A DNA stretch of 64,000 nt from Candidatus Azambacteria bacterium (lineage in GTDB: Bacteria; Patescibacteriota; Minisyncoccia; GWC2-36-17; WO2-46-25). Shown piece by piece: positions 2,512-59,794 of this stretch. Within the stretch, counting starts at the first letter, position 1, and every line of letters begins with the position of its first letter. The notes under the pieces are model-generated. The model made no database searches and was not told the origin of the DNA. It was given only the letters and a program-made list of their open reading frames with translations. The position numbers and the translations under genes are program-made. The stretch spans positions 2,121 through 66,120 of the forward strand of contig JACRAK010000007.1 in assembly GCA_016234725.1 (NCBI GenBank), read 5' to 3'.

Positions 2512-3261
2512 TTGTCAATCAACTTTACGAGGTCGCACCTCGTAAGATATAATGAAATAGTGAAACGCCCTACTTTTGCCAACGAACACATTTACCATGC
2601 ATACAACAGAGGCGTGGAAAAACGAAATGTCTTTCTCGACGAGGAGGATTATTTTCGCTTCATACACGACCTTTTTGAATTTAATGATGTAAACCCTGCC
2701 CTGCCAAGTTCTTACCAATCTTACGAGGTCGCACCTCGTAAGATTGGGGTTGGGAAAAACAAGCGAAAACCGAGGGAATTTCTCGTTCATATACTTGCTT
2801 TTACTCTTATGCCAAATCATTTTCATCTTCTTCTTATGCAAAAACGGGAGAATGGAATTTCGGAATTTCTCAGAAAATTAAGTGGTGGGTACACAATGTA
2901 TTTTAATCAGAAATATGAAAGATCGGGCGTTCTTTTTCAGGGAAGATTCAAGGCGGCACTCGTTGAGCGAGACGCCCACTTTATCCATCTCCCGTATTAT
3001 ATTCATGCGAACCCCCTCGATCTTGTCATGCCGGAATGGCGCGAGGGGAACTTGAAAAATCCGGAAGCCGCATTCACCTTTCTTACGTCCTATAAGTGGA
3101 GCAGTTTTTCTGATTATATTGGCAAGAGAAATTTTCCATCCGTCACACAAAGGGAGTTTCTACTCAATGGTGCGGGTAACGAAGAAAGATATAAATCCGA
3201 TTTTATTTCATGGTTGAAAAGCATACAACTCGACACCATCTCGGATATAATCATTGAATAA
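2512..3261 (+). CDS. REP-associated tyrosine transposase (RAYT, IS200/IS605-like Y1 HuH transposase); TTG start in the track, true start uncertain
   Basis: HuH motif LMPNHFHLLL; YHAYNRG(V)EKRNVF N-terminal motif; flanked by and containing its cognate REP palindromes. Confidence 0.75.
   Translation: MSINFTRSHLVRYNEIVKRPTFANEHIYHAYNRGVEKRNVFLDEEDYFRFIHDLFEFNDVNPALPSSYQSYEVAPRKIGVGKNKRKPREFLVHILAFTLMPNHFHLLLMQKRENGISEFLRKLSGGYTMYFNQKYERSGVLFQGRFKAALVERDAHFIHLPYYIHANPLDLVMPEWREGNLKNPEAAFTFLTSYKWSSFSDYIGKRNFPSVTQREFLLNGAGNEERYKSDFISWLKSIQLDTISDIIIE
2525..2545. repeat. REP palindrome copy 1 (ttacgaggt-cgc-acctcgtaa) at the 5' end of the RAYT gene
   Basis: perfect 9-bp-arm palindrome, identical core to copies 2 and 3. 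Confidence 0.85.
2715..2747. repeat. REP palindrome copy 2 (15-bp arms) inside the RAYT ORF, in-frame (encodes YQSYEVAPRKIGVG)
   Basis: ccaatcttacgaggt cgc acctcgtaagattgg. Confidence 0.85.
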
Positions 3262-3420: not shown

Positions 3421-6400
3421 TTAGAGCTGCTTCAAGAACCCGAAGATGTCCTGGAAGTTGGTGATGATAAGGTCGATCACGGTTTCGCCTTTCTTGGGCG
3501 TCAGGATGGTAAAGTCGGTCGAGCGTCCTTTGTTGTTGGACGGATCTGCCGACTCGACCTGGAAGCGGTACACCGCGCCCGGCTTGAAGCTCGTGATCAC
3601 CATCACATGGCTTGTCGTATACTCCTGGTCGAGCTTCGAGAATTCGACAAGGTCGCCTTTGCCCACGCCCTCTTTCCAGAATATCTGTGAAGTGGACGGC
3701 TCGTCCGTTTCCCAATAGATGAGCGTCTGCGTCCGTTCCGTTTTGCCCGGGAATATCGTGGACTCGGAGCGTACCTTGCTGATCACCGGCGCTTTCTCGT
3801 CCACCGTCGTGCGGATCGTGCCGATCACTTTGGAGGCGCGCGCATCGGTCACGTCCGCGCTCGATATCTCGATAAGGAAGTTGGTATTCGACGTAAGGTT
3901 CGCCACCGTCACTTCGTGGTCTTTCACGAATTCCGGCTTGCCCTGCGTCCTTGCTTCTTTGCTCAACAGCTCTCCGTCATCAAACGGCGTGTAGCGCACC
4001 TGCGAATTGGAAAGCGTGTTCGTCTTCCACACGACCGTGATGGAGTTTTCCGTGATGCGTTTGAATGAGTAATCAAGGATCTGCGGCAATTCCGGCTTGG
4101 TCTCAAACACAAAGTCGCGCGATTTGCCTTCCGGCCCCACTTTCGCCTGCGAACGGATCTGGAAATGATACGCCGTTGCGGGCTCAAGGTTCGGCACCGT
4201 CACGACGTGCGTCGTCACCTCTTCCCGCGGCTGGCCGACCTGCACGGTGTAGGGGTCCTTCGCATTCGGATCGTATTCGTCCTGCGGCACCAGCGCGATC
4301 AGCGAACCGGCCGGCTTGTTCGTGCGCCACGTCACCGTCGCTTTGTTCGAGTCGATATCCACCTGCGGCACGCCGCCGATGATCGCAGGCGGCACGACTT
4401 CCTGCGTGATCTCTGAAATGGTGTCGGTGATCTCGGTCGTCAACTCTTCAAGATCCGAAAGCGACACATCGGTGGACACGCTCTTGAGGATCGATTTGAA
4501 CCGCTGCACCGCGTCTCTGAGTGAATCCTGCGTCTTTGCCTTGCCGCGCAATTCTTCGAGTTCTTTTTTAAGCGATTCCAGATCTTCTTTCGCAAGCAAC
4601 GCTTCTTCTTCGACGGTAAGCGTCGTGAATGTCTGGTCGCCCGAGTACGCGCGATTCCCGCGCTGATCGGCGGACATCACTTTGAAATTGTATGCGGTCT
4701 TCGGATTAAGCCCCGACACCGTCACGGTATGATCGGTCGCCATTTCTTCCGAACCGGCGAGGCCCCCATAGTTCATCGTTACGCCGTATTTCACCAGCGA
4801 ATCGGCCGATTCGTCGGTCGTCCACGCGATCGTCGCCGCTGTCGCCTTGATGTCTTTGATCACGAGCGACGCGATGAGCGGCGGCGTCACATCGCCCACC
4901 TCTACGATGGTCCTGCCCACCGTTACCACGTCTTTTGCGATGGTGGCGCATGAAAGCGTCGCTGATACTTCGCCGCCGGAAGCGTTGAGTGACCGCACTT
5001 TCGCATAATAGGTCGTACTTTCGGTGAGGCCGGTGAACGTATTGGAGTGCGCGGTCACATAACCCGCCGCAGCGCGCGATGCGTTATCGATCGTCCCTGT
5101 CGGATACTGCGCAACCTGCGCGCCAGCTACGGTCGAGAAATAATTTGCACCGACATCAGCAGAAAGCAAGGAAAGTTCTGTCGTGGAGAACTGGTCGGTC
5201 GTCCACGTCACCGTTGCGGTGGAAGAGGTCGTGGAACATGCCGCCATCGTCGTTATTGCCGGCGGCGTTTGGGTGGTTGTTGTCAGAGAGCGGATCGTTG
5301 ATTCATCGTACTGCGTGTACGAATCGCTTGATGAGTTTTGGTCCGTAGAGCGCACTTTATAATAGTAGGTTGCCGAGTATGTCAGGTTCGGAATAACGAC
5401 CGTATGCACATACTGCCCGTTGCCGTCCGCCGAGGTTACCTGCGCGCTTGAACCGACTGATATCGGATTGACGAGCGCCGATGCGCTTGTCGTCGCGTAA
5501 AACACGATGGAGTCGGATGCCTTATCCGTTTTCCATGTAATAGAGGCAGAGTCAAACGCCGGCGTCGCCACGATGCTTCCGGAGACAATCGCGGGGCCAT
5601 TTTGCGTGGTGAATGTGTAGCCCGCATCCGACGCGCCTTCAAATGCGCAATTGCCCGTCGCATCGCACGACTCCGCGGCATACCGGTACTGCATGTTCTT
5701 GGTCAGATTTGAAAGCGCGATCGTATGCGTTGCGGGCGTGCTTGTCGCGACCGTGAGATAGCCGGGATTTCCCAACTTCGAGGTATATCGCTCGCGGCCA
5801 ACTTTTCCGCTATTCACGTTATTCGTGAAATCCTGCTGTGTCGCAAAATATACCGCGGCATTCGTCGCGCCCGACGCGCCATCCGTCGCGTTAAACGAGA
5901 CCGTCGCCGATGTCGCCTTCACCAGCGAACTCGCCACGTTCGTGACCACCGGCGCCGTAGCGTCATTGCCGCCGCCTCCTTCGCCGAGATTTACCGCCCC
6001 GTCCGGTTTCGCCGTCGTCGAGGCATTCGAACGAATGGACGTATTGCCGTTTGCCGCGGTCACGCCCAAGCGATACCGATAATACAGGTTCGTATTAAGA
6101 TTCTGATGCACATAGTAGTTGGTGGAAATGCTCGTGATCGGCGTCGTAGCGTTTATATAAGAAGAAAATGTCGTGTTGTTGGTCGATGTCGCGTATTCGA
6201 TCTTATATGAAGCGAAATCAGACGATGTCGCCGTTTCCCACCCGATGAATAAGCGCCAGTCGCTCGTGCCAACCTTGGAAACATCCTGCACCAAAAATGA
6301 GCTTGATGCCGCCGGCATGATCGTCGATGCGGTGGATGTTGCCGCGGTGTTCGCGTACGGGTCGCGTACCTGCACCTTCAATGTCTTTACTTCAAAATCG

Positions 6401-9400
6401 CTGTCAAATGTCCATGCTCTCGTGCCGGGTGTCGTAAATGTGGTCCACGGGGTCGAGCTTGCGGTCGAATGTGTTGCCGCATCATCAGCGATCATATACT
6501 GCGCCGTGCTTGTCGCATCGCCCGATGTCGACATGCTTACCGTTGCGCTTCCGGTCTCGCCCGCCACACCCGCATCGAATGTAAACCCGAATGTCGGCGC
6601 GACATTGTCAATAATGACGTTCGCGGATGAGTCGGTCGAGGAAACGCTCTGCGACGAAAGCTGATTTGCGAGATTATTATCATGCACAAGCACGCGCACC
6701 TTCGCGGTGTAATTTGAATAATTTGCAAGTTGCGATTCCGCCCGTTGATTCCATACAATTGATTTACCGGTTCCTTTCGTCACCGAACCGACATCGCCTG
6801 TTGTTCCGCTCGCCTTTATCCATACCGTGGTGCCGGAAGAATACGCTTTCGTGTGCCGCGTAGAAGCGCCCGGCCACGAAAGGTCGCTTGAACCGCGCGT
6901 CAATGTGCCAAGCGTCGTGCCGTTCACGATCGCGGCATATTTCACCACTTCAGTACCTATCTGCACATACCCTGACGACGGCATTTTTGATGTATCCGAT
7001 ACGGTCAGCGTCGTCGTGTTGTCACTGGTTAAAGTTACGCCCGCATCATAAAAAAGATATGCTTCGTAGGCATCGCTTGTTTCCGATGGATCATCGGCAA
7101 GATCATACGTCACCGTAACTTTCCCGGCATCAGCTACCGTGGCGCCATTGGTCGTCGCCGCCGTGGTCGCAACAACATTCGTCACGGTCGGTGCGGTATT
7201 CACCACATACGTCACGCTCGCGCTCGCAACATACGGCGCATTCAAATAATTAGAAGAAGGAATAAGCGTGATGCGATACTGATACCACTGGTCATTCGAG
7301 CCGTCGGCAAGCGCCGCGGGGATAGTTGAGAAAGTGTTCAGCCCCGTTCCTGTCGCGACCCAATATGTGTCAACGCCCGAAGGGCCGTACCATGATGCCG
7401 CAGAAAGTCCGCCCGATGCCGATGCGGTGCGCACCTGTATCTTTGCCGCGGTACCTGTTGGCAGTGTACTGACACTCATACGCACATCACCGATCACATT
7501 TGCAGCAGAACCGGAATCATACGGGGAAGAAATAAGCGTATAGCCGTTCGTGCTATCGAGCGGCTTTAGATAATTTACGGTTATGTCGTTTAATTGTGGC
7601 GTTGACCCACCATCGGTGGTCTGGAGTATGGCATCATATTGAAACCATCGGTCACCAGATCCGTCGGTCAACGCAGTGTTTGCAATAGCCCCCCTATTAT
7701 TCGCATCGACAAAATAATCGGTGCCGGAACAATTTGTCGGACCGCACCATGATGCCGTCGCAAGTCCCGAAAGCGAACTTGCGGTACGGATACGGAATTT
7801 CAAAACTGCACTACTTGACGTTACCCCACTCCAGCTGATCGAAGATATGCCGTTGCCGTCATTTTCGGTATCAAATGGCGAAGAAACAAGTGAATAATTA
7901 GTACCGGGAGCAGCAATAGGATATTGCTGATATGAAACGGTAATATCGCTCAATGATGGCGTTGTGTTGGCATATACAACGGTGCCTGTCGTAGATACGA
8001 ACGCCTTATATCGGAAATATCTGTTGCCGTTGATGATACTTGCAAGCGCGGATTGTATAATACATGTCACCGCATACGGATTCGAACCGGTCACTGTACA
8101 ATTTGTATTGTCTTTACTGAATTTTGAAGTACCAGACAGCGAACCGACCGCAGTTGTTGATCCATCGTAATTATAGTATGTCCACGGTCCGCTTGCGCTA
8201 TTTGAAGATGCAACCTGTATGTCTAGATCGGTGTTTGCCGGCTGGTTCAAATTAAACGCAAGTGAAGAAATGGTTGCTGCACCCCCAAGATCAATGACTC
8301 CTGATTCAAAATTTCCCGAAGTGGCGTAATTGTCCTTGGTGTTGAATCGTCCAGAATTAGTACCAAGCTCCGCTGCGACAAAAATATTGCCGTTGTCTAT
8401 AGAAACTATTGATGATTCACCGAATACTGAAACACCCCATGGATTCGGATACGTGGTCGACAAATTAGTCCATGCACCGCTTGCAATAGTATATTTCGCG
8501 AAATAGGGAGCAGAGTTATAGAAGGAATAAAGGGTGCCGACTCCATCAAAGACAATGTATCCGTAATTTAACATTGCGTTAGACGATGTCAGATCGGTCC
8601 ACGTATTTGAAACGATATTAAACTTGGCAAAATCTGTAGGAGCGCCTCCTACAAGCTGATGGGCAGAAATATAAATATCTCCATTCACGCTATCATGCGT
8701 CATGCTCGCGGCACCAACCGTCCACGGCAATGGTTTGGTAGCTGTTAGATTTGTCCACACGCCGGTCGCGGTATCATACTTCGCAAATTGTGCAGTTGGA
8801 GTGCTTCCTCCTGCACCAGCAAGATAAAGAGTACCGCTGCCATCGGAAACTAGAGCGCCATTGGATACAGAAAATGGTGGGGGATTCGTGCTGGTGAGAT
8901 TTGTCCAGGTGTTTGTTCCCGGATTATATTTGGCAAAATTAGTAGTCCCCAATCCCCCTATAACAAAAATATTTCCCGTGACGCTATCATACACAACTCC
9001 TCCTCCGCCCACGTTAAATGGTACCGGTTTCGTGCTTGTAAGATCCGTCCATGCATTTGACATTACGCTATATCGTGCAAACCCGTTAGTAGAATACCCT
9101 TTCACGCTATAAATTGTCGCATTGCCGTCATACGCTAATCCGCCAATGTAACTGTTATAAGGAACTGGAGCAACTTCAGTGAGATTAACCCACGCATTAG
9201 CTGATATCTCTTTATATAAATTAACGCTGCCCGCACCCGCTGATCCATTTACCTCGGTGCTTGAGTTGGTGCCATTATAAAAACCAAGTCCATTTACCGA
9301 TACGCCTGCCGCTCCGCTATTTGCGCCACTTCCGCCGGTCACTGTGGGAGCTGAACCCGATACACTCCCTCTCAAAATAACTCTTCCTCCACCTCCTCCG

Positions 9401-10695
9401 CCGCCGCTAGCCGAAGAACCGCTGCCGCCTGCGCCGCCGCTTGCGGAAATAACGCCGCTGTTTGAGATGCTTGCACTTGTTAATTCTATTCTTCCTCCTG
9501 CGCCGCCGCCGCCGCCAAATGTACATCCGGTACCGCCTGCGCCGCCGTTTTCGGTTACCGCACCAGTCACTGTAATGTTGCCGCTACTTATTATTTTAAG
9601 ATATCCGCCACCTGCGCCGCCGCCGCCACCTGGATTATATGTGCTATTTCCACTACCGCCGCCGCCACCTGCGCCGCCGAGTTCAAGATTATACGCGGAG
9701 CTACCCCTCCCGTAACTTGTACCGCCGCCATTGCCGCCTGCGCCCCCATATCCGCCGCCGCCGCCGCTACCATAAGTACTGTAACCTCCCATACCGCCAA
9801 CAGTACCAGCGCCACCGCCACGCCCTGAATTCCCATTTGTATAACTTCCGGATGTCCCAGATCCGCCACTACCGCCATTATACCCGCCCGCAACACCCGT
9901 TGCACCAGCACCCGTTGTTCTTCCCGATACTCCACAATTTGTCGCACTACCACCGTTCGCACCATTGAGATTAATGGTACCGCTGACAGTGACATTTCCT
10001 GTGGCATTGATAGTAATGGCCGTAGAACCGGTCGCGGTTAAGGTAACTCCAGAATCAATATTAAAAGAAGTATAATTATAAGTTCCCGCGGCAATTACAC
10101 AATTCGGCGCAGTGCCGCTGATACCGGTGCCACTGCATGAACTAGTGGTCAGATTGACCGCTCCATCAGTGCCCGTGCCTCCACTAAAAGTAATCGCCGC
10201 CGATCCAGTAGTGGTTAACGTGCCGTCATCCGTAACAGTACCGTTTACAACAGCAAGCCGTAAACCCCCTGGCGTAGTTGTATAATCAATATGTGCATCG
10301 GTGGTGCTTGCGCTTGTCCACCCGGTTTGGTTGCTGGTGTGATTTGCAGAAGTCGTTTGATTCACCGACGACCAAGTGGTCTGTGCGAAACTGCCCGTCG
10401 AGGTGGCGACGGTCAGATCGGTTCCCGTAGTAAGATACGACGAGCTGGTGGAATAAAAGCTCGTCACACCAGTTTGTGCCGCACCACCCGTGTGGCCTGC
10501 AGTCGCATTGGTATCGGCAGAGGCCGCCCAATCATTTTGCGTGAACGTGAAGCTCGCCGCGAGCGCGGGAGCAGAAGGTGTAAGCGTGACGCTCACCACG
10601 TTCACCGCGACAAACGCAGTGACAAATATTTTCCTCACAAGACCTTTAAACTTTGAAGCTTTTAAACTTCTGCTCCCCTTTCCACCTCGACTCAT
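3421..10695 (-). CDS. giant surface protein (2424 aa): N-terminal signal/TM anchor, long Gly-rich low-complexity tract, Kelch-like beta-propeller repeats (FAKY..W.NLT), multiple Fn3/Ig-like domains, C-terminal coiled coil
   Basis: single uninterrupted ORF; N-terminal hydrophobic segment VTAFVAVNVVSVTL...ALAASFTF; recurring ~50-aa FAKYN.GTNTWT.LTS repeats; Fn3-like blocks (ITWKTD...YYYKV). Confidence 0.8.
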   Translation of the reverse strand: MSRGGKGSRSLKASKFKGLVRKIFVTAFVAVNVVSVTLTPSAPALAASFTFTQNDWAASADTNATAGHTGGAAQTGVTSFYSTSSSYLTTGTDLTVATSTGSFAQTTWSSVNQTTSANHTSNQTGWTSASTTDAHIDYTTTPGGLRLAVVNGTVTDDGTLTTTGSAAITFSGGTGTDGAVNLTTSSCSGTGISGTAPNCVIAAGTYNYTSFNIDSGVTLTATGSTAITINATGNVTVSGTINLNGANGGSATNCGVSGRTTGAGATGVAGGYNGGSGGSGTSGSYTNGNSGRGGGAGTVGGMGGYSTYGSGGGGGYGGAGGNGGGTSYGRGSSAYNLELGGAGGGGGSGNSTYNPGGGGGAGGGYLKIISSGNITVTGAVTENGGAGGTGCTFGGGGGAGGRIELTSASISNSGVISASGGAGGSGSSASGGGGGGGRVILRGSVSGSAPTVTGGSGANSGAAGVSVNGLGFYNGTNSSTEVNGSAGAGSVNLYKEISANAWVNLTEVAPVPYNSYIGGLAYDGNATIYSVKGYSTNGFARYSVMSNAWTDLTSTKPVPFNVGGGGVVYDSVTGNIFVIGGLGTTNFAKYNPGTNTWTNLTSTNPPPFSVSNGALVSDGSGTLYLAGAGGSTPTAQFAKYDTATGVWTNLTATKPLPWTVGAASMTHDSVNGDIYISAHQLVGGAPTDFAKFNIVSNTWTDLTSSNAMLNYGYIVFDGVGTLYSFYNSAPYFAKYTIASGAWTNLSTTYPNPWGVSVFGESSIVSIDNGNIFVAAELGTNSGRFNTKDNYATSGNFESGVIDLGGAATISSLAFNLNQPANTDLDIQVASSNSASGPWTYYNYDGSTTAVGSLSGTSKFSKDNTNCTVTGSNPYAVTCIIQSALASIINGNRYFRYKAFVSTTGTVVYANTTPSLSDITVSYQQYPIAAPGTNYSLVSSPFDTENDGNGISSISWSGVTSSSAVLKFRIRTASSLSGLATASWCGPTNCSGTDYFVDANNRGAIANTALTDGSGDRWFQYDAILQTTDGGSTPQLNDITVNYLKPLDSTNGYTLISSPYDSGSAANVIGDVRMSVSTLPTGTAAKIQVRTASASGGLSAASWYGPSGVDTYWVATGTGLNTFSTIPAALADGSNDQWYQYRITLIPSSNYLNAPYVASASVTYVVNTAPTVTNVVATTAATTNGATVADAGKVTVTYDLADDPSETSDAYEAYLFYDAGVTLTSDNTTTLTVSDTSKMPSSGYVQIGTEVVKYAAIVNGTTLGTLTRGSSDLSWPGASTRHTKAYSSGTTVWIKASGTTGDVGSVTKGTGKSIVWNQRAESQLANYSNYTAKVRVLVHDNNLANQLSSQSVSSTDSSANVIIDNVAPTFGFTFDAGVAGETGSATVSMSTSGDATSTAQYMIADDAATHSTASSTPWTTFTTPGTRAWTFDSDFEVKTLKVQVRDPYANTAATSTASTIMPAASSSFLVQDVSKVGTSDWRLFIGWETATSSDFASYKIEYATSTNNTTFSSYINATTPITSISTNYYVHQNLNTNLYYRYRLGVTAANGNTSIRSNASTTAKPDGAVNLGEGGGGNDATAPVVTNVASSLVKATSATVSFNATDGASGATNAAVYFATQQDFTNNVNSGKVGRERYTSKLGNPGYLTVATSTPATHTIALSNLTKNMQYRYAAESCDATGNCAFEGASDAGYTFTTQNGPAIVSGSIVATPAFDSASITWKTDKASDSIVFYATTSASALVNPISVGSSAQVTSADGNGQYVHTVVIPNLTYSATYYYKVRSTDQNSSSDSYTQYDESTIRSLTTTTQTPPAITTMAACSTTSSTATVTWTTDQFSTTELSLLSADVGANYFSTVAGAQVAQYPTGTIDNASRAAAGYVTAHSNTFTGLTESTTYYAKVRSLNASGGEVSATLSCATIAKDVVTVGRTIVEVGDVTPPLIASLVIKDIKATAATIAWTTDESADSLVKYGVTMNYGGLAGSEEMATDHTVTVSGLNPKTAYNFKVMSADQRGNRAYSGDQTFTTLTVEEEALLAKEDLESLKKELEELRGKAKTQDSLRDAVQRFKSILKSVSTDVSLSDLEELTTEITDTISEITQEVVPPAIIGGVPQVDIDSNKATVTWRTNKPAGSLIALVPQDEYDPNAKDPYTVQVGQPREEVTTHVVTVPNLEPATAYHFQIRSQAKVGPEGKSRDFVFETKPELPQILDYSFKRITENSITVVWKTNTLSNSQVRYTPFDDGELLSKEARTQGKPEFVKDHEVTVANLTSNTNFLIEISSADVTDARASKVIGTIRTTVDEKAPVISKVRSESTIFPGKTERTQTLIYWETDEPSTSQIFWKEGVGKGDLVEFSKLDQEYTTSHVMVITSFKPGAVYRFQVESADPSNNKGRSTDFTILTPKKGETVIDLIITNFQDIFGFLKQL

Positions 10696-11739: not shown

Positions 11740-11750
11740 TGTGGATAACT
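11740..11750 (-). promoter_or_regulatory. DnaA-box-like 11-mer AGTTATCCACA (reverse orientation)
   Basis: tgtggataact; one of four identical 11-mers in the window. Confidence 0.5.
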
Positions 11751-12519: not shown

Positions 12520-12613
12520 TCTTTTCTTTTAAAACGAAATCATTATAATGCATGCATTGCAATTTGACAACTTCATACTACCAAAATCGTTTTAACGAAA
12601 AAGGAGGTGTCTT

Positions 12614-12982
12614 ATGATGGACAAAAATGAAAGAGAGATACTTGTCAATGCTCTAAAGGTTATAAAGGGAACTCGTTTCATTCCTCACGTATATTCAAAC
12701 ATGGCCTACAATAGCCGAGAATATACTGATGCCGTCGACGCATTGGTGAAGCTTTCCGGGGACAATGAAATCAGGGAAAAAGCGCAGCACTACGCCTTAA
12801 AATGGGAAGAGCGATTGAAGGAAAGAGGGGAGAAGGATCTCAAAGAATCAACAAAAAACGGCACTGGAAAGACGTTAAAGATACTAGGGGGATGTCTTTT
12901 TGCGCTTGCCGCGATTGGCACAACCGCGGGGATTGTGCATCATAGGAGAAAAAAAAATGAACAAAAGAAAACAGGGGAATAA
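12614..12982 (+). CDS. hypothetical protein with C-terminal transmembrane segment
   Basis: strong SD AAGGAGGTG 7 nt upstream; 122 aa; C-terminal hydrophobic stretch ILGGCLFALAAIGTTAGIV. Confidence 0.55.
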   Translation: MMDKNEREILVNALKVIKGTRFIPHVYSNMAYNSREYTDAVDALVKLSGDNEIREKAQHYALKWEERLKERGEKDLKESTKNGTGKTLKILGGCLFALAAIGTTAGIVHHRRKKNEQKKTGE

Positions 12983-24225: not shown

Positions 24226-24615
24226 ATGGAGAAGAAGGACGCGAAAATACTGATCGTCGAAGATGACATCATGCTCAATAAAATATATCAAACCAAGCTT
24301 ACTCTGCTTGGGTATCAAGTGCTGGCCGCATACGACGGGGACGAAGGGCTTACGATGATGGGGGAGCACCAGCCGCATTTGGTGCTTCTTGACCTCATGC
24401 TCCCCAAAAAGAACGGGTTTGAAGTGCTTGAAGCGGCAAAGCAAGACGTGAAGATAAGCCGTATCCCCGTTATCATCCTTTCCAACCTCGGGCAGGGGGG
24501 GGACATCCAAAAAGGCATGGAGCTTGGCGCGGTCGATTTTCTCGTGAAAAGCAACGTAAAGCTGGAAGCGGTTGTGGATAAAATAGGAATTGTTTTGCAA
24601 AAGTACTATGGGTAG
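24226..24615 (+). CDS. standalone response-regulator receiver (REC) protein
   Basis: KILIVEDD...HLVLLDLMLPKKNGFEVLE...IPVIILSNLG...K. Confidence 0.8.
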   Translation: MEKKDAKILIVEDDIMLNKIYQTKLTLLGYQVLAAYDGDEGLTMMGEHQPHLVLLDLMLPKKNGFEVLEAAKQDVKISRIPVIILSNLGQGGDIQKGMELGAVDFLVKSNVKLEAVVDKIGIVLQKYYG

Positions 24616-49894: not shown

Positions 49895-50161
49895 ATGATC
49901 CCTACAAAAGAAAAGCAAAAACTCATTAAAGACGTGCAGGTGCACGAAACCGATACTGGATCTCCCGAGGTCCAGATTTCATTGCTTTCCGAGGAGATCG
50001 GTCGGCTGACCGACCATCTCAAAACGCATCAAAAAGACAACCATTCACGGCGCGGGCTGTTGAAAATGGTGTCAAAACGGAAATCGCTCCTCGATTATCT
50101 GAACCATACCGACAAAAAGCGGTACAACGGGATCGTGAAAAAACTCGGATTGCGCAAATAA
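49895..50161 (+). CDS. rpsO: 30S ribosomal protein S15; start moved to MIPTKEK
   Basis: [25 protein letters not shown]. Confidence 0.9.
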
Positions 50162-50667
50162 TGCCGGTCATCAAACAAAAAAACCAGCGGGTGGGCATTT
50201 TTATCGATGTCCAGAACCTCTATCATTCGGCAAAGAACCTCTATCACGCGCGGGTGAATTTCCGTGAAGTGATCAAAAGCGCGCTCGCACAGCGCCAGCT
50301 CGTGCGGGCGATCGCCTATGTCATCAGCACCGAGTCGGGCGAAGAAAAAGGATTTTTTGAAGCGCTCGCGAAGCTCGGCATCGAAACGAGGGAAAAAGAA
50401 CTGCAGACATTCTACGGCGGCGCCAAAAAAGGCGACTGGGATGTCGGCATTACCGTCGATGCGCTGCGCATCGCACCGGCGGTGGACGCGGTCGTCATAT
50501 GTTCGGGGGACGGTGATTTTCTGCCGCTCATCGAACAGCTCAAAAGCATGGGCAAGCAGGCGGAAGTGGTGGCGTTCTCAAAGAGCGCGTCGTCGAAACT
50601 GCGAGAGGAAGCCGATGATTTCGTAGACCTGTGCGCCGATCAGCAAAAATATCTTTTCCGGAAATAA
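50161..50667 (+). CDS. NYN-domain (LabA-like, PIN-fold) protein
   Basis: VGIFIDVQNLYHSAKNL...DVGITVDAL...DAVVICSGDGDFLPLI. Confidence 0.8.
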   Translation: MPVIKQKNQRVGIFIDVQNLYHSAKNLYHARVNFREVIKSALAQRQLVRAIAYVISTESGEEKGFFEALAKLGIETREKELQTFYGGAKKGDWDVGITVDALRIAPAVDAVVICSGDGDFLPLIEQLKSMGKQAEVVAFSKSASSKLREEADDFVDLCADQQKYLFRK

Positions 50668-50948: not shown

Positions 50949-53066
50949 ATGGAAACGAAAGAATTTTCGCTCGCCCTTGGCAATAAGGCCATCGTCGTGC
51001 GCAAAAACTCGCTTGCGGGGCAGGCGAACGGGTCGGTGCTCGTCTCGTGCGGCGACACGGTGGTGCTCGCGACCGCGGTCATCAGCAAGAACGCAAAAGA
51101 AGGCATTGATTATTTTCCGCTCTCGGTTGAATACGAGGAGCGGTTTTACGCTGCGGGAAGGATCCCCGGCTCCCGGTTCATCAAACGGGAAACGCGGGCA
51201 TCACAGGAAGCAATCCTTACCGGCCGGCTTATCGACCGCACGCTTCGCCCGTTGTTTGATTCGGCGGTCCGCAATGAAGTACAGGTCATCGTGACCGTGC
51301 TTTCGATCGACCATGAAAACGACCCTGACGTGATCTCTATGGTCGCGGCATCTGCCGCGCTTGCCACCTCGAACATCCCATGGGCAGGCCCTATCGGCGC
51401 CGTGCGCATCGGGCGCGTGGACGGAACGCTTATTCTCAATCCGACATACGCGGAGCGGGAAAAGTCAGATATGGACATCGTGGTCGCGGGCATTCACGGC
51501 AGAGTAAATATGCTCGAGGGAGATGCCGCCCAGGTCGCGGAAGCAACGATCGTTGAGGCGATCACGCTTGCGCAAACGCATGTTGAAAAACTCATCGCGT
51601 TCCAAAACGATATCGTGAAAGCGATCGGCTCACAAAAGATCGCCGTTCCTGCAAAAGAAATCGATAAAGCATTCGTCGCATTCGTTGAATCGATCGTCCG
51701 CGCGGAGCTTGAAGAGATATTGTATCAACCGCACAAGCAAAAAAGATTGGACGCGCTCAATACGCTCAAAGATGCGCTCGCAGAAAAAGTCGCGCTCCAC
51801 TATCCTGATGACGCAAAGAAAGGAAAAGAAGCGATGAATTTGTTTGAAGAACTCATCAATGCGATCGTCCACGAAAACATTATTCATAAAGAGAAAAGGC
51901 CCGACGGAAGAAAGACCGACGAATTGCGGCATCTTTCAAGCTATGTTTCTTTTTTACCTCGTACGCACGGTTCCGGTATTTTCGTCCGGGGAGAAACACA
52001 GGTGCTTTCAGTGCTCACGCTTGGCGCTCCCGGCGACCAGCAGGTCATCGACACGATGGAAACAAAAGACGGCATGAAGCGCTTTATGCATCACTACAAT
52101 TTCCCGCCGTATTCGGTAGGAGAAGTAAAACCGTTACGAGGCCCGTCGCGGCGCGACGTTGGACACGGCGCACTTGCGGAACGCGCGCTTGCTCGTCTTA
52201 TCCCTCCGCAAATTGAATTTCCCTACACCATCCGCCTGGTCTCTGAAACACTGTCGTCCAACGGCTCATCGTCTATGGCATCGGTGTGCGCTTCGACGCT
52301 TGCACTTATGGACGGCGGGGTGCCGATCAAAGCGCTCGCGGCAGGCATCGCCATGGGCTTGATGTCCGATGACAAGGGAAACTATAAAGTGCTCACCGAT
52401 ATCCAGGGACCCGAAGATCATCATGGCGATATGGACCTGAAGGTCGCGGGGACAGAAAACGGCATCACCGCCTTACAGATGGATGTAAAAGTAGATGGGG
52501 TTACTATTGCGATCCTGGGCGAAACCTTCGCGCAAGCCAAAAAAGCCCGGCTTGAGATATTGTCGGTAATGAAAACCGCGCTTCCCGCGCCGCGCTCCGA
52601 GCTTTCCCAGCACGCGCCGCGCATTATTACGCTTCAGATCAACCCTGATAAGATCAGAGATGTTATCGGCCCCGGCGGCAAAGTGATCAACGAGATCATC
52701 AACTCGACCGGCGTATCCATCGACATTGAAGACGACGGTTCGGTATTCATCACCTCGGTCAACCAGGACTCGGCTCAAAAAGCGGTCGAATGGGTGAAAA
52801 ACCTCACCAGAGAGGCGAAAGTCGGCGAAGTATTCCAGGGCAAGGTGACGCGCATCATGGCGTTCGGTGCTTTTGTGGAGATCTTCCCAGGCACCGAAGG
52901 GCTCGTGCACGTATCGCAGCTCTCCGACAAATACGTAGGACATCCGGACGAAGTGGTGAAGATCGGCGACATCATCCCCGTCAAGCTCGTCGAGATCGAC
53001 TCGCAGGGGAGAATGAACCTCTCGCACAAAGTGCTGATACAAGCGGAGCAACGAAAGGAACAATAG
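50949..53066 (+). CDS. pnp: polynucleotide phosphorylase; start moved to METKEF
   Basis: two RNase PH domains, KH and S1; MDLKVAGTENGITALQMDVK. Confidence 0.9.
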   Translation: METKEFSLALGNKAIVVRKNSLAGQANGSVLVSCGDTVVLATAVISKNAKEGIDYFPLSVEYEERFYAAGRIPGSRFIKRETRASQEAILTGRLIDRTLRPLFDSAVRNEVQVIVTVLSIDHENDPDVISMVAASAALATSNIPWAGPIGAVRIGRVDGTLILNPTYAEREKSDMDIVVAGIHGRVNMLEGDAAQVAEATIVEAITLAQTHVEKLIAFQNDIVKAIGSQKIAVPAKEIDKAFVAFVESIVRAELEEILYQPHKQKRLDALNTLKDALAEKVALHYPDDAKKGKEAMNLFEELINAIVHENIIHKEKRPDGRKTDELRHLSSYVSFLPRTHGSGIFVRGETQVLSVLTLGAPGDQQVIDTMETKDGMKRFMHHYNFPPYSVGEVKPLRGPSRRDVGHGALAERALARLIPPQIEFPYTIRLVSETLSSNGSSSMASVCASTLALMDGGVPIKALAAGIAMGLMSDDKGNYKVLTDIQGPEDHHGDMDLKVAGTENGITALQMDVKVDGVTIAILGETFAQAKKARLEILSVMKTALPAPRSELSQHAPRIITLQINPDKIRDVIGPGGKVINEIINSTGVSIDIEDDGSVFITSVNQDSAQKAVEWVKNLTREAKVGEVFQGKVTRIMAFGAFVEIFPGTEGLVHVSQLSDKYVGHPDEVVKIGDIIPVKLVEIDSQGRMNLSHKVLIQAEQRKEQ

Positions 53067-53088
53067 GCATTGGCTTTGATGAGTGTGG

Positions 53089-53122
53089 AAAAGGCCGCGG
53101 GATGTTATCCGAGGCCTTTTTC
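53089..53122. terminator. rho-independent terminator after pnp (bidirectional)
   Basis: aaaaggcc-gcgggatgttatccga-ggccttttt. Confidence 0.7.
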
Positions 53123-53133
53123 TTTTTCCCTGC

Positions 53134-53211
53134 TTATTTTACGCAGAGAGGGCATGTGCCTGCGCCGGCGCAGGCAGTGCAACTGATACCACAACCATTC
53201 CCTTTCTTCAT
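53134..53211 (-). CDS. 25-aa Cys-rich mini-ORF MKKGNGCGISCTACAGAGTCPLCVK with a near-ideal SD; candidate small protein / RiPP-like precursor, or a chance ORF over a GC palindrome
   Basis: GGAGGTG 5 nt upstream of the ATG; Cys pattern C-x3-C-x2-C-x5-C-x2-C; the ORF spans the 18-bp palindrome gcctgcgccggcgcaggc; terminator just downstream. Confidence 0.35.
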   Translation of the reverse strand: MKKGNGCGISCTACAGAGTCPLCVK

Positions 53212-53343
53212 GCTCACCTCCGTTGGTGACAAATAAGCCTGTTGCCTCCATGACAACAAGCATTCGCCGTCAGAAAAGAGAACATAAATACATATATGTA
53301 TTATACGCGCTTTTTCCTGCAAAAGTATCTATATCCGCATAAA

Positions 53344-53354
53344 AGTTATCCACA
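53344..53354 (+). promoter_or_regulatory. DnaA-box 11-mer AGTTATCCACA about 12 bp upstream of a sigma70-like promoter (-35 TTGACG 53366-53371, -10 TATACT)
   Basis: exact TTATCCACA; promoter hexamers with 16-nt spacing. Confidence 0.5.
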
Positions 53355-53394
53355 ATTTACCTATTGACGCGCTTCATGGTTTTGCTATACTAAC

Positions 53395-53518
53395 AATATT
53401 GAAACATTAAGTTTCGATAAAAAAGCTTTGTAGCGGCTTAAAGCTACTAGAAATTCTTGGAGATCATAAGATCTCCATTCCAAATAAAAGTCCAAAGCTT
53501 CGGCTGAGGACTTTTTCA
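53395..53518 (+). ncRNA. candidate small RNA 1 (~120 nt): promoter, three hairpins, intrinsic terminator; no start codon
   Basis: hairpins gtagc-ggcttaaa-gctac, ggagatc-ataa-gatctcc; terminator aaagtcc-aaagcttcggctg-aggacttttt. Confidence 0.4.
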
Positions 53519-53540
53519 TTTATGCCGCCGCAGTAGTTAT

Positions 53541-53655
53541 TGACCCCGTTACAAGCTCGTCGATGGCTTTTTTCAGAAAGCGCTAAGGCGAAGCCGCCTT
53601 ACGGCTTATGCTCGTTGAGAGAAAATGCCTGATATAAGCTTGTAACGGGGTTGAC
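53541..53655 (+). repeat. structured repeated intergenic element copy 1 (tgaccccgttacaagctcgtcgat ... gctaaggcgaagccgccttacggct ... agcttgtaacggggttgac)
   Basis: 14-bp long-range inverted repeat plus an internal 7-bp-stem hairpin; partial copy at 63497-63564. Confidence 0.6.
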
Positions 53656-53686
53656 TTATTGCGTAAATAACCTTTATTATGCATGT

Positions 53687-53776
53687 ACCGTGGTGGCCAA
53701 AAGCCACCACCCAACTGAGGAGGGGACATAATCCCTTCACCTCAAAAGCTCCCTACCACAAGTCGGGAGCTTTTTA
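53687..53776 (+). ncRNA. candidate small RNA 2 (~90 nt): promoter (-35 TTGACT 53651, -10 TATTAT 53675), hairpin gtggtggc-caaaa-gccaccac, intrinsic terminator aaagctccc-taccacaagtc-gggagcttttt
   Basis: no ATG; read from sequence. Confidence 0.4.
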
Positions 53777-53794
53777 TTATCCCCCTGTCGGGAA

Positions 53795-53805
53795 AGTTAT
53801 CCACA
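53795..53805 (+). promoter_or_regulatory. DnaA-box 11-mer AGTTATCCACA about 10 bp upstream of the promoter -35 TTGACC (53816) / -10 TATAAT (53838)
   Basis: exact 11-mer; strong -10. Confidence 0.5.
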
Positions 53806-54072
53806 GGATATGCCTTTGACCGCCCTTCGCACGGTGGTATAATAAGTTCAACGAGAGATTGAGATCACTGTTATCAATATCGATCAAAAGTTTCTCGTAG
53901 TACCTTAAAAACAAGAACTGGCTCCTTTCTGAGCTAGAAAAAATAAATAGACCCTGAATTCTCTAAATTTTCAACGCATTATACACAGAGATCTCGGGGT
54001 CTTTTTTTATTATGTGAAAAACGGTATTATGAAGACAGGCCTACTGCCTGATAATTGCAGTAGATCCAACAT

Positions 54073-55308
54073 ATGAACCAAGACAACAAAATAGGACAGG
54101 GAGCTCCATCGACAAGCGGCGCGCCGGGCGAACTGCCGGTCGTCGGTGAAAAGAAATTTTTTACGCATACGATGCAAGAGGACGTTATGAGGGCAAAAAT
54201 GGACCCCGCGTCATTTGCAAAAGAAATAGCGGCAAAAAAGCCGTTTTCAGAATACATTCCTCCCGTGTCCGCTCCCAAAGAGCCGGAGATCGCCGATAGG
54301 TTCAGGGAACCGATCGAAGGCCTCCCTGACCGTGACCAGCCGTTCCCGCTTCCGGATACAAAAACTGAAAGGGAAGGCGACCAGCCGTTCCAAATACGCA
54401 TTCCTCAAAAACGCGGCGCGACCAGCGCGACCACGATCATGTTAGCGGTTGTGCTTTTGGTGCTTGTTGCGGGCGGCGGCGCGGCATATTGGTGGTTCTT
54501 CATGCGAACCCCCGCAGCGGAGGTTATCGTGCAAATACCTGAACAAAAAGCCGCTCCGCAGCCACAACCCGCACCGGTTATTCCCGTTCAGCCGGAACCC
54601 GAGCCTGAGCCGGAACCGCAACCAGAGCCCATCGCCACCACTACCGAGCCCATCGTGATGCCGGAGCCCGTTGCGACCACAACCCCGCCCGTGGTAACTC
54701 CGCCGCCCGCGCCGATACAAACCCCTGAACCGGCGCTTCCGGAGGCGGTCATTACGCTTGACCGCACTGCGATCATAGAGGTCGCAAAACTCGATAAGGC
54801 GCTTTTACTTGAAGCAATGGCCGCAGAGAATATAAAAATAACGGAAGGAAAAGCAACGATCCGTTACGCGGTAAAGCTTGTTACGGGATCGGAAAAAAGA
54901 TTTTTGACCGGCAATGAAACAGCACAGCTCCTGGAGCTTTCGGTGCCCGCCGATCTTTCGAAGCTCATGAACGCATCGGAGCTTATCGGGTATAAAAGCG
55001 GCGCGTCGTTCCGCTACGGCTTCGCGAGCGCGATCCAGGACAAAACAAACGTAAAAAATGCGGCGATTGCATGGGAACGCGCCATGCTTGATGATCTTGC
55101 CGCGTTGTACATCGAAAAAGCGTATCAAAAACCAGCAACCATCGCGTTCTCCACCAACACATACTTCGATTTCTACAAGCGCTTCATCAATATGCCGCAG
55201 CCGGACGTTTCATTTGACTGGGCGGTGTCTCCCCGCTATTTTGTCATCGCAACGTCAAAAGAAATGATCTACGCGGTACTCGACAAAGCGCGCCAGCCCG
55301 GCAAATAA
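54073..55308 (+). CDS. Pro-rich membrane-anchored hypothetical protein (central TM, P/E/Q-rich linker, C-terminal globular domain)
   Basis: TM IMLAVVLLVLVAGGGAAYWWFF; PEPEPEPEPQPEP tract. Confidence 0.6.
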   Translation: MNQDNKIGQGAPSTSGAPGELPVVGEKKFFTHTMQEDVMRAKMDPASFAKEIAAKKPFSEYIPPVSAPKEPEIADRFREPIEGLPDRDQPFPLPDTKTEREGDQPFQIRIPQKRGATSATTIMLAVVLLVLVAGGGAAYWWFFMRTPAAEVIVQIPEQKAAPQPQPAPVIPVQPEPEPEPEPQPEPIATTTEPIVMPEPVATTTPPVVTPPPAPIQTPEPALPEAVITLDRTAIIEVAKLDKALLLEAMAAENIKITEGKATIRYAVKLVTGSEKRFLTGNETAQLLELSVPADLSKLMNASELIGYKSGASFRYGFASAIQDKTNVKNAAIAWERAMLDDLAALYIEKAYQKPATIAFSTNTYFDFYKRFINMPQPDVSFDWAVSPRYFVIATSKEMIYAVLDKARQPGK

Positions 55309-59783: not shown

Positions 59784-59794
59784 AGTTATCCACA
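59784..59794 (+). promoter_or_regulatory. DnaA-box 11-mer AGTTATCCACA in the divergent M23-peptidase / uvrD intergenic region
   Basis: exact 11-mer. Confidence 0.5.

Follow-up and report, generated by a model that had tools for sequence, protein, structure and literature searches.

Does the intergenic region next to pnp in a Candidatus Azambacteria genome encode a protein too small to be noticed by gene callers, or is the short cysteine-rich reading frame detected there a by-product of a GC-rich RNA hairpin? The region belongs to a 64,000-nucleotide stretch of contig JACRAK010000007.1 (assembly GCA_016234725.1, positions 2,121 to 66,120; this whole stretch is hereafter the window, and all positions are given within it), whose polynucleotide phosphorylase (PNPase) is nearest to proteins named Candidatus Azambacteria or Patescibacteria. 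The open reading frame (ORF) in question occupies positions 53134..53211 of the minus strand, TAA stop codon included, and is convergent to pnp (50949..53066, plus strand). As read by translation, it encodes a 25-amino acid (aa) peptide, MKKGNGCGISCTACAGAGTCPLCVK, which includes the stretch GNGCGISCTACAGAGTCPLCVK and five cysteines with the spacing C-x3-C-x2-C-x5-C-x2-C. An earlier note on this DNA had singled out this mini-ORF for its Cys spacing, its ideal Shine-Dalgarno (SD) sequence 5 nt from the ATG and its flanking terminator, all of which we find as described, on the minus strand, and had weighed a cysteine-rich precursor of a ribosomally synthesized and post-translationally modified peptide (RiPP) of the SCIFF or ranthipeptide type, a tiny metal-binding peptide, and a hairpin artefact. 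The comparison of related loci described below makes it very probable that the mini-ORF is a genuine gene under purifying selection at the amino acid level. The more complete reading, namely an independently transcribed, lineage-restricted gene for a cytoplasmic metal- or iron-sulfur (Fe-S)-binding micropeptide, is the one that we favor, with moderate confidence.

The SD sequence of the mini-ORF, GGAGGTG (53215..53221, minus strand), lies inside a conserved block, CACCAACGGRGGTG, in the arrangement GGAGG + 5 nt + ATG. SD sequences are rare in the window, where the majority of the 52 large ORFs, among them pnp, lack one at a plausible start; against this SD-poor genome, the SD of the mini-ORF stands out as unusually strong and is counted in favor of a real gene. 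A few clear, strong SDs are present elsewhere in the window, for example AAAGGAGGTG ahead of a 128-aa ORF at 12596-12979. Five ATG-initiated ORFs in the window combine a length of 20-40 aa with 5 or more Cys residues, the mini-ORF being the only one with an SD in front of it, and none of the 100 first-order Markov simulations of the window that served as a chance control yielded an ORF of this length and Cys content preceded by an SD. The decisive evidence for a non-chance origin is comparative, namely the conservation of the mini-ORF in 8 distinct loci.

The pnp loci of relatives were obtained by exact look-up of PNPase homologs, and 185,579 species genomes and the JGI metagenomes were additionally scanned with a degenerate nucleotide pattern that describes the Cys core. 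Mini-ORF orthologs of 23-25 aa were identified at the same place, convergent to pnp, in 7 further distinct loci (8 with the window). In the order of decreasing PNPase identity to the window, these are L025 (97%; MKRTCRISCCACGNAGTCPLCAK), L002 (95%; MKKKCGISCGACACAGTCPLCKK), L015 (94%; MKKTGCGIKCDACAYAGTCPLCAAK), L003 (= L004/5/17/21/24; 93%; MKGTCRISCTACACAGTCPLCIQKK), L007 (90%; MKKKKCRISCTACGDAGTCPCCGK), L006 (= L016; 88%; MKKEKCGISCTACACAGTCPLCKK) and L014 (= L018/28; 74.6%; MKKTCRISCTACGCAGTCPLCAAK). The complete metagenome-assembled genomes with the mini-ORF include RBG_16_47_10, JANLHQ01 and H41-bin131_1. The mini-ORF was not found after pnp in L008 (77% PNPase identity), L027 (74%), L029 (71%), L009 (69%) and L010 (67%); because the L008/L027 lineage does without it, the gene is dispensable. 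The pattern scan of the species genomes returned 4 loci from Patescibacteria and 2 chance matches (GC-rich frames without start codons in Marinobacter and Nocardia), and that of the JGI metagenomes returned 4 true loci, including one new sequence, and 5 chance matches. The pattern matches in L012, L013, L019 and L020 were discarded as chance hits in GC-rich frames without starts, those in L022 and L023 as short start-less frames of lower G+C content, and the most similar-looking chance match, L026, lies antisense within a 367-aa gene. A regular expression with looser Cys spacing, applied to all 350 kb of the retrieved loci, detected no further variants.

Alignment of the family members shows that C7, I9, C11, A13, C14, A17, G18, T19, C20, P21 and C23 are invariant, which gives the core C-x-I-x-C-x-A-C-x-x-A-G-T-C-P-x-C. 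Position 16 is Cys in 4 of the 8 distinct sequences and G (in the window), D, Y or N in the rest; since G16 is thus found in the window only, we discarded the interpretation of 'CTACAGAG' as a DnaJ-type CxxCxGxG motif. Of the 23-25 residues of each member, 5-7 are Cys; His is absent, and one Tyr in L015 is the sole aromatic residue of the family. All members have basic termini (MKK..., ...KK), and in every one of them the first Cys is preceded by just 4-6 residues. The micropeptide and SD region of L025 (GGGGGTGTGTAATG, MKRTCRISC..ACGNAG; positions 3003-3074) resembles that of L014 (3355-3429), though the PNPases of these loci are, respectively, 97% and 75% identical to that of the window. In a comparison of these two regions with the window, the family looks mosaic, with 'CGISC' and 'CRISC' types, which suggests recombination at the intergenic locus.

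The pattern of change among the 8 loci is that of a protein-coding sequence. An ATG together with GGAGG or GGGGG (GGRGG) is present at the same place in all 8, and in all 8 a stop codon is found 2-4 codons past the last Cys. The indels inside the ORF, located in its N- and C-terminal parts, comprise 3, 6 or 9 nt, all multiples of 3, and indels of 1-2 nt are confined to the SD-ATG spacer and the region after the stop. In the 17-codon core, the variable sites are distributed over the first, second and third codon positions as 4/5/15, and the pooled ratio of nonsynonymous to synonymous polymorphism (pN/pS) is 0.20 in the mini-ORF frame, whereas the two remaining sense frames give 2.06 and 1.03. 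Six residues outside the Cys set, I9, A13, A17, G18, T19 and P21, are invariant although the third positions of their codons vary. In L014, the peptide core is identical to that of the window in 14 of 17 positions despite a PNPase identity of only 74.6%, and hence the peptide is constrained at least as strongly as an essential enzyme. The earlier note had proposed to examine relatives for synonymous as opposed to structure-preserving substitutions; the reading frame turns out to be kept, with an excess of synonymous change and without structure-preserving compensation.

The palindrome that raised the suspicion of an RNA artefact is real and overlaps the Cys codons, but its length is 20 bp, not the 18 bp originally given: the perfect palindrome TGCCTGCGCC/GGCGCAGGCA spans positions 53157-53176, within codons 12-19 (T-A-C-A-G-A-G-T). 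Across the 8 loci, 96% of the cells of its stem are paired. None of its 7 pairs has both sides altered, so that no compensatory change is seen, and a column-shuffle control gave a result identical to the observed one; in two loci, the central U-A pair is broken. The pairs consist of the first and second positions of the invariant Ala, Cys and Gly codons plus wobble positions, TGC and GCA being mutual reverse complements, and the palindrome is best read as a by-product of the alternation of Ala, Cys and Gly codons. The transcript of the whole mini-gene folds better than shuffled sequences (z = -4.2). Rfam yielded no match, either at the gathering score for the whole window or at E <= 5 for the region 53050-54100. 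A further stem is predicted around the end of the ORF (CTCTCTGC / GCAGGGA, 53127..53150, minus strand); its loop contains the stop codon together with the two sense codons that precede it. This stop-enclosing stem (CTCTGC/GCAGRG) keeps 7 pairs in 4 of the 4 sequences of the consensus fold and is not in the same register in L007 and L025; it may, on weak evidence, be the reason why CCTCTCTGC hardly varies even at third codon positions.

The mini-gene would be transcribed independently, as a unit made up of a TATAAT promoter element, a structured 5' untranslated region (UTR) of ~85 nt, the strong SD, 23-25 codons and a terminator that pnp uses as well. The candidate -10 box, TATAAT (53300..53305, minus strand), is located 94 nt upstream of the ATG and has a poor -35; TATAAT or TATACT is found 58-94 nt upstream of the ATG in 6 of the 8 loci, and L025 and L014 contain GATAAT-/GATACT-like boxes instead, which were found by eye. 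A scan for two-hexamer consensus promoters did not call the mini-gene promoter, and we infer the transcription start from the candidate -10 box. An upstream in-frame TTG start (62-aa ORF, 53322..53134) was rejected given that this ORF would span the -10 box and that relatives have stop codons directly upstream of the ATG. Approximately 15 nt upstream of the SD, the 5' UTR contains a stem-loop followed by a U-rich stretch (GCTTGTTGTC-ATGGA-GGCAACAGGC, 53237..53261, minus strand), which scored as terminator-like and has 12 pairs in the consensus fold; compensatory double changes affect 3 of these. At this site, L003 contains another hairpin and L007 has the stem-loop deleted, which indicates that it is dispensable for the ORF. 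The consensus fold additionally places a 5-bp CACC/GGTG stem over the SD; this stem is invariant and, for that reason, uninformative. Between the stop codons of the mini-ORF and pnp lies a bidirectional intrinsic terminator (AAAAGGCCGCGG-loop-CCGAGGCCTTTTTCTTTTT, ~53089-53127) that is common to pnp (plus strand) and the mini-gene (minus strand), a G+C-rich hairpin with T-runs on both sides and with compensatory changes in its stem across relatives. Its U-tract is long on the pnp side, with only 4-5 U on the side of the mini-gene.

Database searches suggest that the mini-gene is unannotated and has no detectable homolog beyond a few Azambacteria species. Exact look-up of the peptide in a collection of 15 billion protein sequences returned nothing; a 97-aa concatenate of four members, compared with 5.8 billion word-indexed proteins, shared words with 87 candidates, none of which reached E <= 10; and an exhaustive phmmer search of 1.84 billion representatives with a 30-aa in-frame extension gave 0 matches. 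A scan of 7 of the 8 members against NCBIfam detected no family at E <= 10, and no significant family was found in Pfam, where the sole scoring model was FeoB_associated (E 0.35) and the Fer4 families and metallothionein models did not appear at E <= 10. In a 4-kb Logan contig that is identical to this region of the window, the gene caller annotated a 52-aa ORF and not the mini-ORF. The similarities detected in the PDB, none of them significant, are all to the cluster loops of [4Fe-4S] ferredoxins: a 'C-ISCSLCFVAGTCP' match in PscB (E 0.23 with the family profile), which has the Cx2Cx5CP spacing in common with the peptide, and a 'CISCGAC--PECP' match in the Clostridium acidurici ferredoxin (E 7-8). 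A search for literature on cysteine-rich small proteins in Patescibacteria found none, and among the Azambacteria papers listed, none looked relevant by title or abstract.

What would such a peptide do? The predicted product has no leader, carries lysines at its two ends and is devoid of any large hydrophobic stretch; its most likely function would be to bind a metal center through Cys thiolates. The suggestion of a tiny metal-binding peptide made in the earlier note can be retained as the best functional reading. We make this proposal because of the composition, the Cys motifs and the non-significant similarities to [4Fe-4S] loops; metal or cluster binding, as judged from the motif only, appears about evenly balanced. 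The motif could be parsed in two ways. C11-x2-C14-x5-C20-P-x-C23 would form a pair of CxxC/CPxC knuckles like those of rubredoxin-type Fe/Zn(Cys)4 sites, whereas C7-x3-C11-x2-C14-x5-C20-P would represent a ferredoxin-like [4Fe-4S] motif with short insertions. Either way, the product would be a cytoplasmic Fe-S-, zinc- or metallothionein-like micropeptide.

Several observations weigh against this interpretation. The similarity to ferredoxins is not statistically significant (PDB E values from 0.23 to 8), the Cx3Cx2Cx5CP spacing differs from the canonical CxxCxxCxxxCP, and nothing in ferredoxin motifs corresponds to C23, the fifth invariant Cys. Only 4 of the 8 members contain the sixth Cys, which is missing in the window. 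A chain of 23-25 residues would be very short for a stable fold without dimerization. The family is narrow, with the gene absent from the L008/L027 lineage, and the promoter of the mini-gene has no recognizable -35. Finally, the antisense frame on the pnp strand whose third positions coincide with those of the mini-ORF has a pN/pS of 0.25 and is open in all loci.

The peptide is comparable to ferredoxin cluster loops, metallothioneins and zinc-knuckle micro-proteins but does not demonstrably belong to any of them. Among known systems, the clostridial-type 2[4Fe-4S] ferredoxins and the loops of PscB/PsaC (Fer4, PF00037) resemble the peptide in having a run of Cys with small residues in between and a Cys-Pro end. 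The I-S-C-G-A-C-A of L002 matches CISCGAC of C. acidurici, and ISC..C..AGTCP matches ISCSLCFVAGTCP of PscB. In its last spacing, the peptide agrees with the PscB site C-x2-C-x2-C-x5-C-P, and in length it comes close to one of the two pseudo-symmetric halves of a 55-aa ferredoxin. Unlike the ferredoxins, the peptide does not contain CxxCxxCxxxCP, has a single motif and carries the extra invariant C23; given the single motif, the fourth ligand must come from C20, C23 or a second chain. It is tempting to consider a natural 'half-ferredoxin', with one ferredoxin-like Cys motif per chain of 23-25 residues, but we regard this as a speculative and rather unlikely possibility. Such a chain could hold one [4Fe-4S] cluster alone, or else a dimer could ligate two clusters, each through C7, C11 and C14 of one chain and the Cys of C20-Pro in the other. 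To our knowledge, this half arrangement, which the ancestor of 2[4Fe-4S] ferredoxins has long been supposed to have had, has so far been realized in designed peptides only.

Metallothioneins (the 25-residue Cu-metallothionein of Neurospora crassa and bacterial SmtA/MymT) are, like the peptide, very small, contain 20-30% Cys, are rich in Gly, Ala, Ser and Thr, and share with it the near-absence of aromatic residues and His as well as terminal Lys. By low mass, Cys content and paucity of aromatic residues and His, the peptide conforms to this compositional part of the operational definition of a metallothionein. It differs in that there is no sequence relationship, in that a single C-x-C occurs, in half of the members, and in that the non-Cys residues are strongly conserved, unlike in typical metallothioneins. 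With respect to rubredoxin and zinc-knuckle sites, C11-x2-C14 and C20-P-x-C23 correspond to two knuckles, the second of which is a classic CPxC. Small stand-alone zinc-finger micro-proteins exist, such as the haloarchaeal CPxCG proteins and desulforedoxin, but the knuckles of the peptide are only 5 residues apart, lack the Gly that follows in CPxCG and are accompanied by the additional invariant C7, and even the smallest known examples (36-60 aa) are roughly twice as long as the peptide. The FeoB-associated Cys-rich membrane protein (PF12669) has a Cys/Gly-rich C-terminal tail that aligns weakly with residues 2-20 of the peptide in one of the 7 members (E 0.35; 11.6 bits compared with a cut-off of 27). 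The peptide has no counterpart of the N-terminal transmembrane helix of this protein, and no feoB gene is located nearby.

A real peptide that binds no metal, acting instead as a thiol/redox buffer, as a Lys-capped regulator that binds protein or RNA, or as a disulfide-forming peptide, is unlikely. In its favor, all the coding evidence fits it equally well, no metal-binding family matches were obtained and the termini are basic in all members. The odd number (five) of invariant Cys argues against a purely disulfide-based design; CxxC and CPxC knuckles with invariant small residues between the Cys are typical of metal sites, as established for rubredoxin and ferredoxin motifs, and the nearest PDB similarities are all cluster-binding loops. 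A membrane-active peptide or type I toxin, the translation of which would be held in check by sequestration of the SD in the folded 5' UTR, appears improbable. The size, the Lys residues flanking an uncharged 17-residue core, the stand-alone transcription unit and the dispensability of the gene in some lineages are compatible with it; the SD/AUG is paired with a pyrimidine tract of the 5' UTR in the minimum free energy fold and with CACC in the consensus fold; and pnp read-through would run antisense to the mini-gene. The core CGISCTACA(C/G)AGTCPLC, however, contains two large hydrophobic residues (I9, L22), a Pro and several Gly, Ser and Thr, is short for a bilayer span and provides no hydrophobic transmembrane segment; a rough sum of the apparent free energies reported by Hessa et al. 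2005 comes to ~ +4 kcal/mol for the 17 residues, which would be unfavorable for insertion. An invariant spacing of Cys residues does not characterize the known type I toxins, and no dedicated antisense promoter overlapping the mini-gene was found. Between the pnp stop and the ORF there is no plus-strand promoter; only pnp read-through could be antisense, the neighboring small RNA (sRNA)-like unit on the plus strand (see below) being divergent and non-overlapping. A RiPP precursor (SCIFF/ranthipeptide, sactipeptide or lanthipeptide-like), with its maturase encoded elsewhere in the genome, is quite improbable. The peptide shares with SCIFF (six cysteines in forty-five residues; TIGR03973) a short ORF, a high Cys content and small residues between the Cys, its Cys/Gly/Ala/Ser/Thr-rich composition recalls SCIFF cores, and the inspection covered 64 kb of the genome. 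Nevertheless, the Cys spacing is different, no precursor model of NCBIfam or Pfam matches even at E <= 10, and the 4-6 residues before the first Cys leave no leader for a recognition element, compared with a leader of ~20 residues in SCIFF. RiPP precursors normally adjoin their maturase, but, in agreement with the earlier note, no radical-SAM/SPASM maturase is adjacent to the mini-gene: none of the window ORFs of 150 aa or more contains CxxxCxxC, and in the syntenic loci Pfam detected no Radical_SAM, SPASM, LanB/C or YcaO domains within 10 kb. The RiPP assignment that the earlier note had entertained is therefore not upheld.

That the locus is non-coding, a structured RNA or the 3' hairpin region of pnp with the ORF as a by-product of the GC palindrome, is very improbable: the 20-bp palindrome with its largely paired stem and the stable fold of the transcript are what such an RNA would have, but the compensatory pairs are missing, with the shuffle control equal to the observation, two loci break the central pair, the periodicity of substitutions, the indels in multiples of 3 and the ATG, SD and stop kept in all 8 loci call for a reading frame, and Rfam offers no match even at the relaxed threshold. 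In the artefact scenario of the earlier note, homologous loci would conserve the hairpin through compensatory changes but not the frame or the SD; the relatives show the opposite. Still less probable is a Cys-rich leader or upstream ORF that would sense Cys-tRNA and control read-through of the terminator into antisense pnp. The many Cys codons, the terminator located ~7 nt past the stop and the short U-tract on the minus strand make such read-through conceivable, but no gene lies downstream on the minus strand, the non-Cys residues are invariant with synonymous variation, which codon sensing does not need, and the consensus fold contains no alternative antiterminator pairing. Finally, it is extremely improbable that the real gene lies in another frame, either that of the pnp strand (...QRGHVPA.AQAVQLI...) or the 52-aa minus-strand ORF (53263..53105). 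The former (frame 1) remains open throughout the 8 loci, with the low pN/pS mentioned above, and the latter was called automatically on the identical Logan contig. The pnp-strand frame, however, has no conserved start or SD, is without a start codon ahead of the core in the case of L014 and L015, is shifted in its downstream part by the 1-2-nt indels of the SD-ATG spacer, and lies beyond the pnp terminator without a plus-strand promoter. The 52-aa ORF (MLVVMEATGLFV...; window 53105-53263, L001 3514-3672) is in a sense frame with pN/pS >= 1 and starts inside the 5'-UTR hairpin that L007 has deleted; its annotation is probably spurious, caused by the 30-codon minimum of the gene caller.

The surroundings of the mini-gene include several other elements. 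An sRNA-like unit of ~119 nt with three hairpins (53364-53516, plus strand), divergent from the mini-gene, has a strong promoter, TTGACG-16-TATACT with TG (53364-53391), and a terminator, GTCC...GGAC + TTTTT (53490-53516); its sequence is well conserved in L002, L007, L015 and L016 and has no Rfam match. A second sRNA-like unit (53651-53779, plus strand; promoter TTGACT-18-TATTAT, ~93 nt, terminator hairpin at 53744-53774) likewise has no Rfam match, and a recognizably similar element, GGCCAAAAGCC...GGAGGG...terminator, is found after pnp in L008 and L027, both of which lack the mini-ORF. Between the two units, an imperfect 30-nt inverted repeat (53543-53651; 77% complementary, around 49 nt; ACCCCGTTACAAGCT.../...AGCTTGTAACGGGGT) was detected. 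The DnaA-box TTATCCACA occurs 5 times in the window compared with 0.15 expected occurrences, at 53346-53354, 53797-53805 and 59786-59794 (plus strand) and at 11740-11748 and 24573-24581 (minus strand). A distance of 9-10 nt separates the boxes at 53346 and 53797 from the -35 of the strong promoters that follow them (GTTATCCACA-N9/10-TTGAC). In L008, L010, L027 and L029, the gene downstream of pnp is likewise preceded by this arrangement; this element could be a promoter-proximal activator or UP-type element, or could mark a DnaA-regulated promoter class in this lineage. Downstream of this intergenic hub, a 411-aa protein (54073-55308, plus strand) with a ~225-nt 5' UTR from a promoter at 53816-53843 has no Pfam match and a Pro/Glu-rich low-complexity middle, and only its two ends are conserved in relatives by tblastn. 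On the other side of pnp, a gene for a 168-aa NYN-domain protein (predicted RNase; 50161-50667, plus strand) is inserted between rpsO and pnp; the relatives examined all share this placement, apart from L002 and L029, the contigs of which begin immediately ahead of pnp. In L009 (GCA_016200965.1; 5523-7697, minus strand), an XerC/D-type integrase of 724 aa encoded upstream of rpsO contains Intein_splicing and LAGLIDADG domains, making it an intein-containing recombinase. The window also contains a giant ORF of 2424 aa (3421-10695, minus strand).

Standard gene callers skip genes of fewer than 30 codons, and the proteomes of the Candidate Phyla Radiation (CPR)/Patescibacteria are largely uncharacterized, with metal and redox biology that is poorly known. 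The mini-gene represents a comparatively validated hidden micropeptide gene of these bacteria, with a narrow distribution, in a few Azambacteria species, that limits its general importance. If its product has some other function than metal binding, it would remain a micropeptide that is specific to its lineage and under strong selection, and that has a very strong translation signal in a genome poor in SDs. If metal or Fe-S binding is true, the peptide would be among the smallest natural metal-binding proteins, relevant to ideas on minimal and ancestral ferredoxins and easily made synthetically for biophysics; and should the half-ferredoxin arrangement hold, no smaller genetically encoded Fe-S protein would be known, and this one would come from a genome-reduced CPR bacterium.

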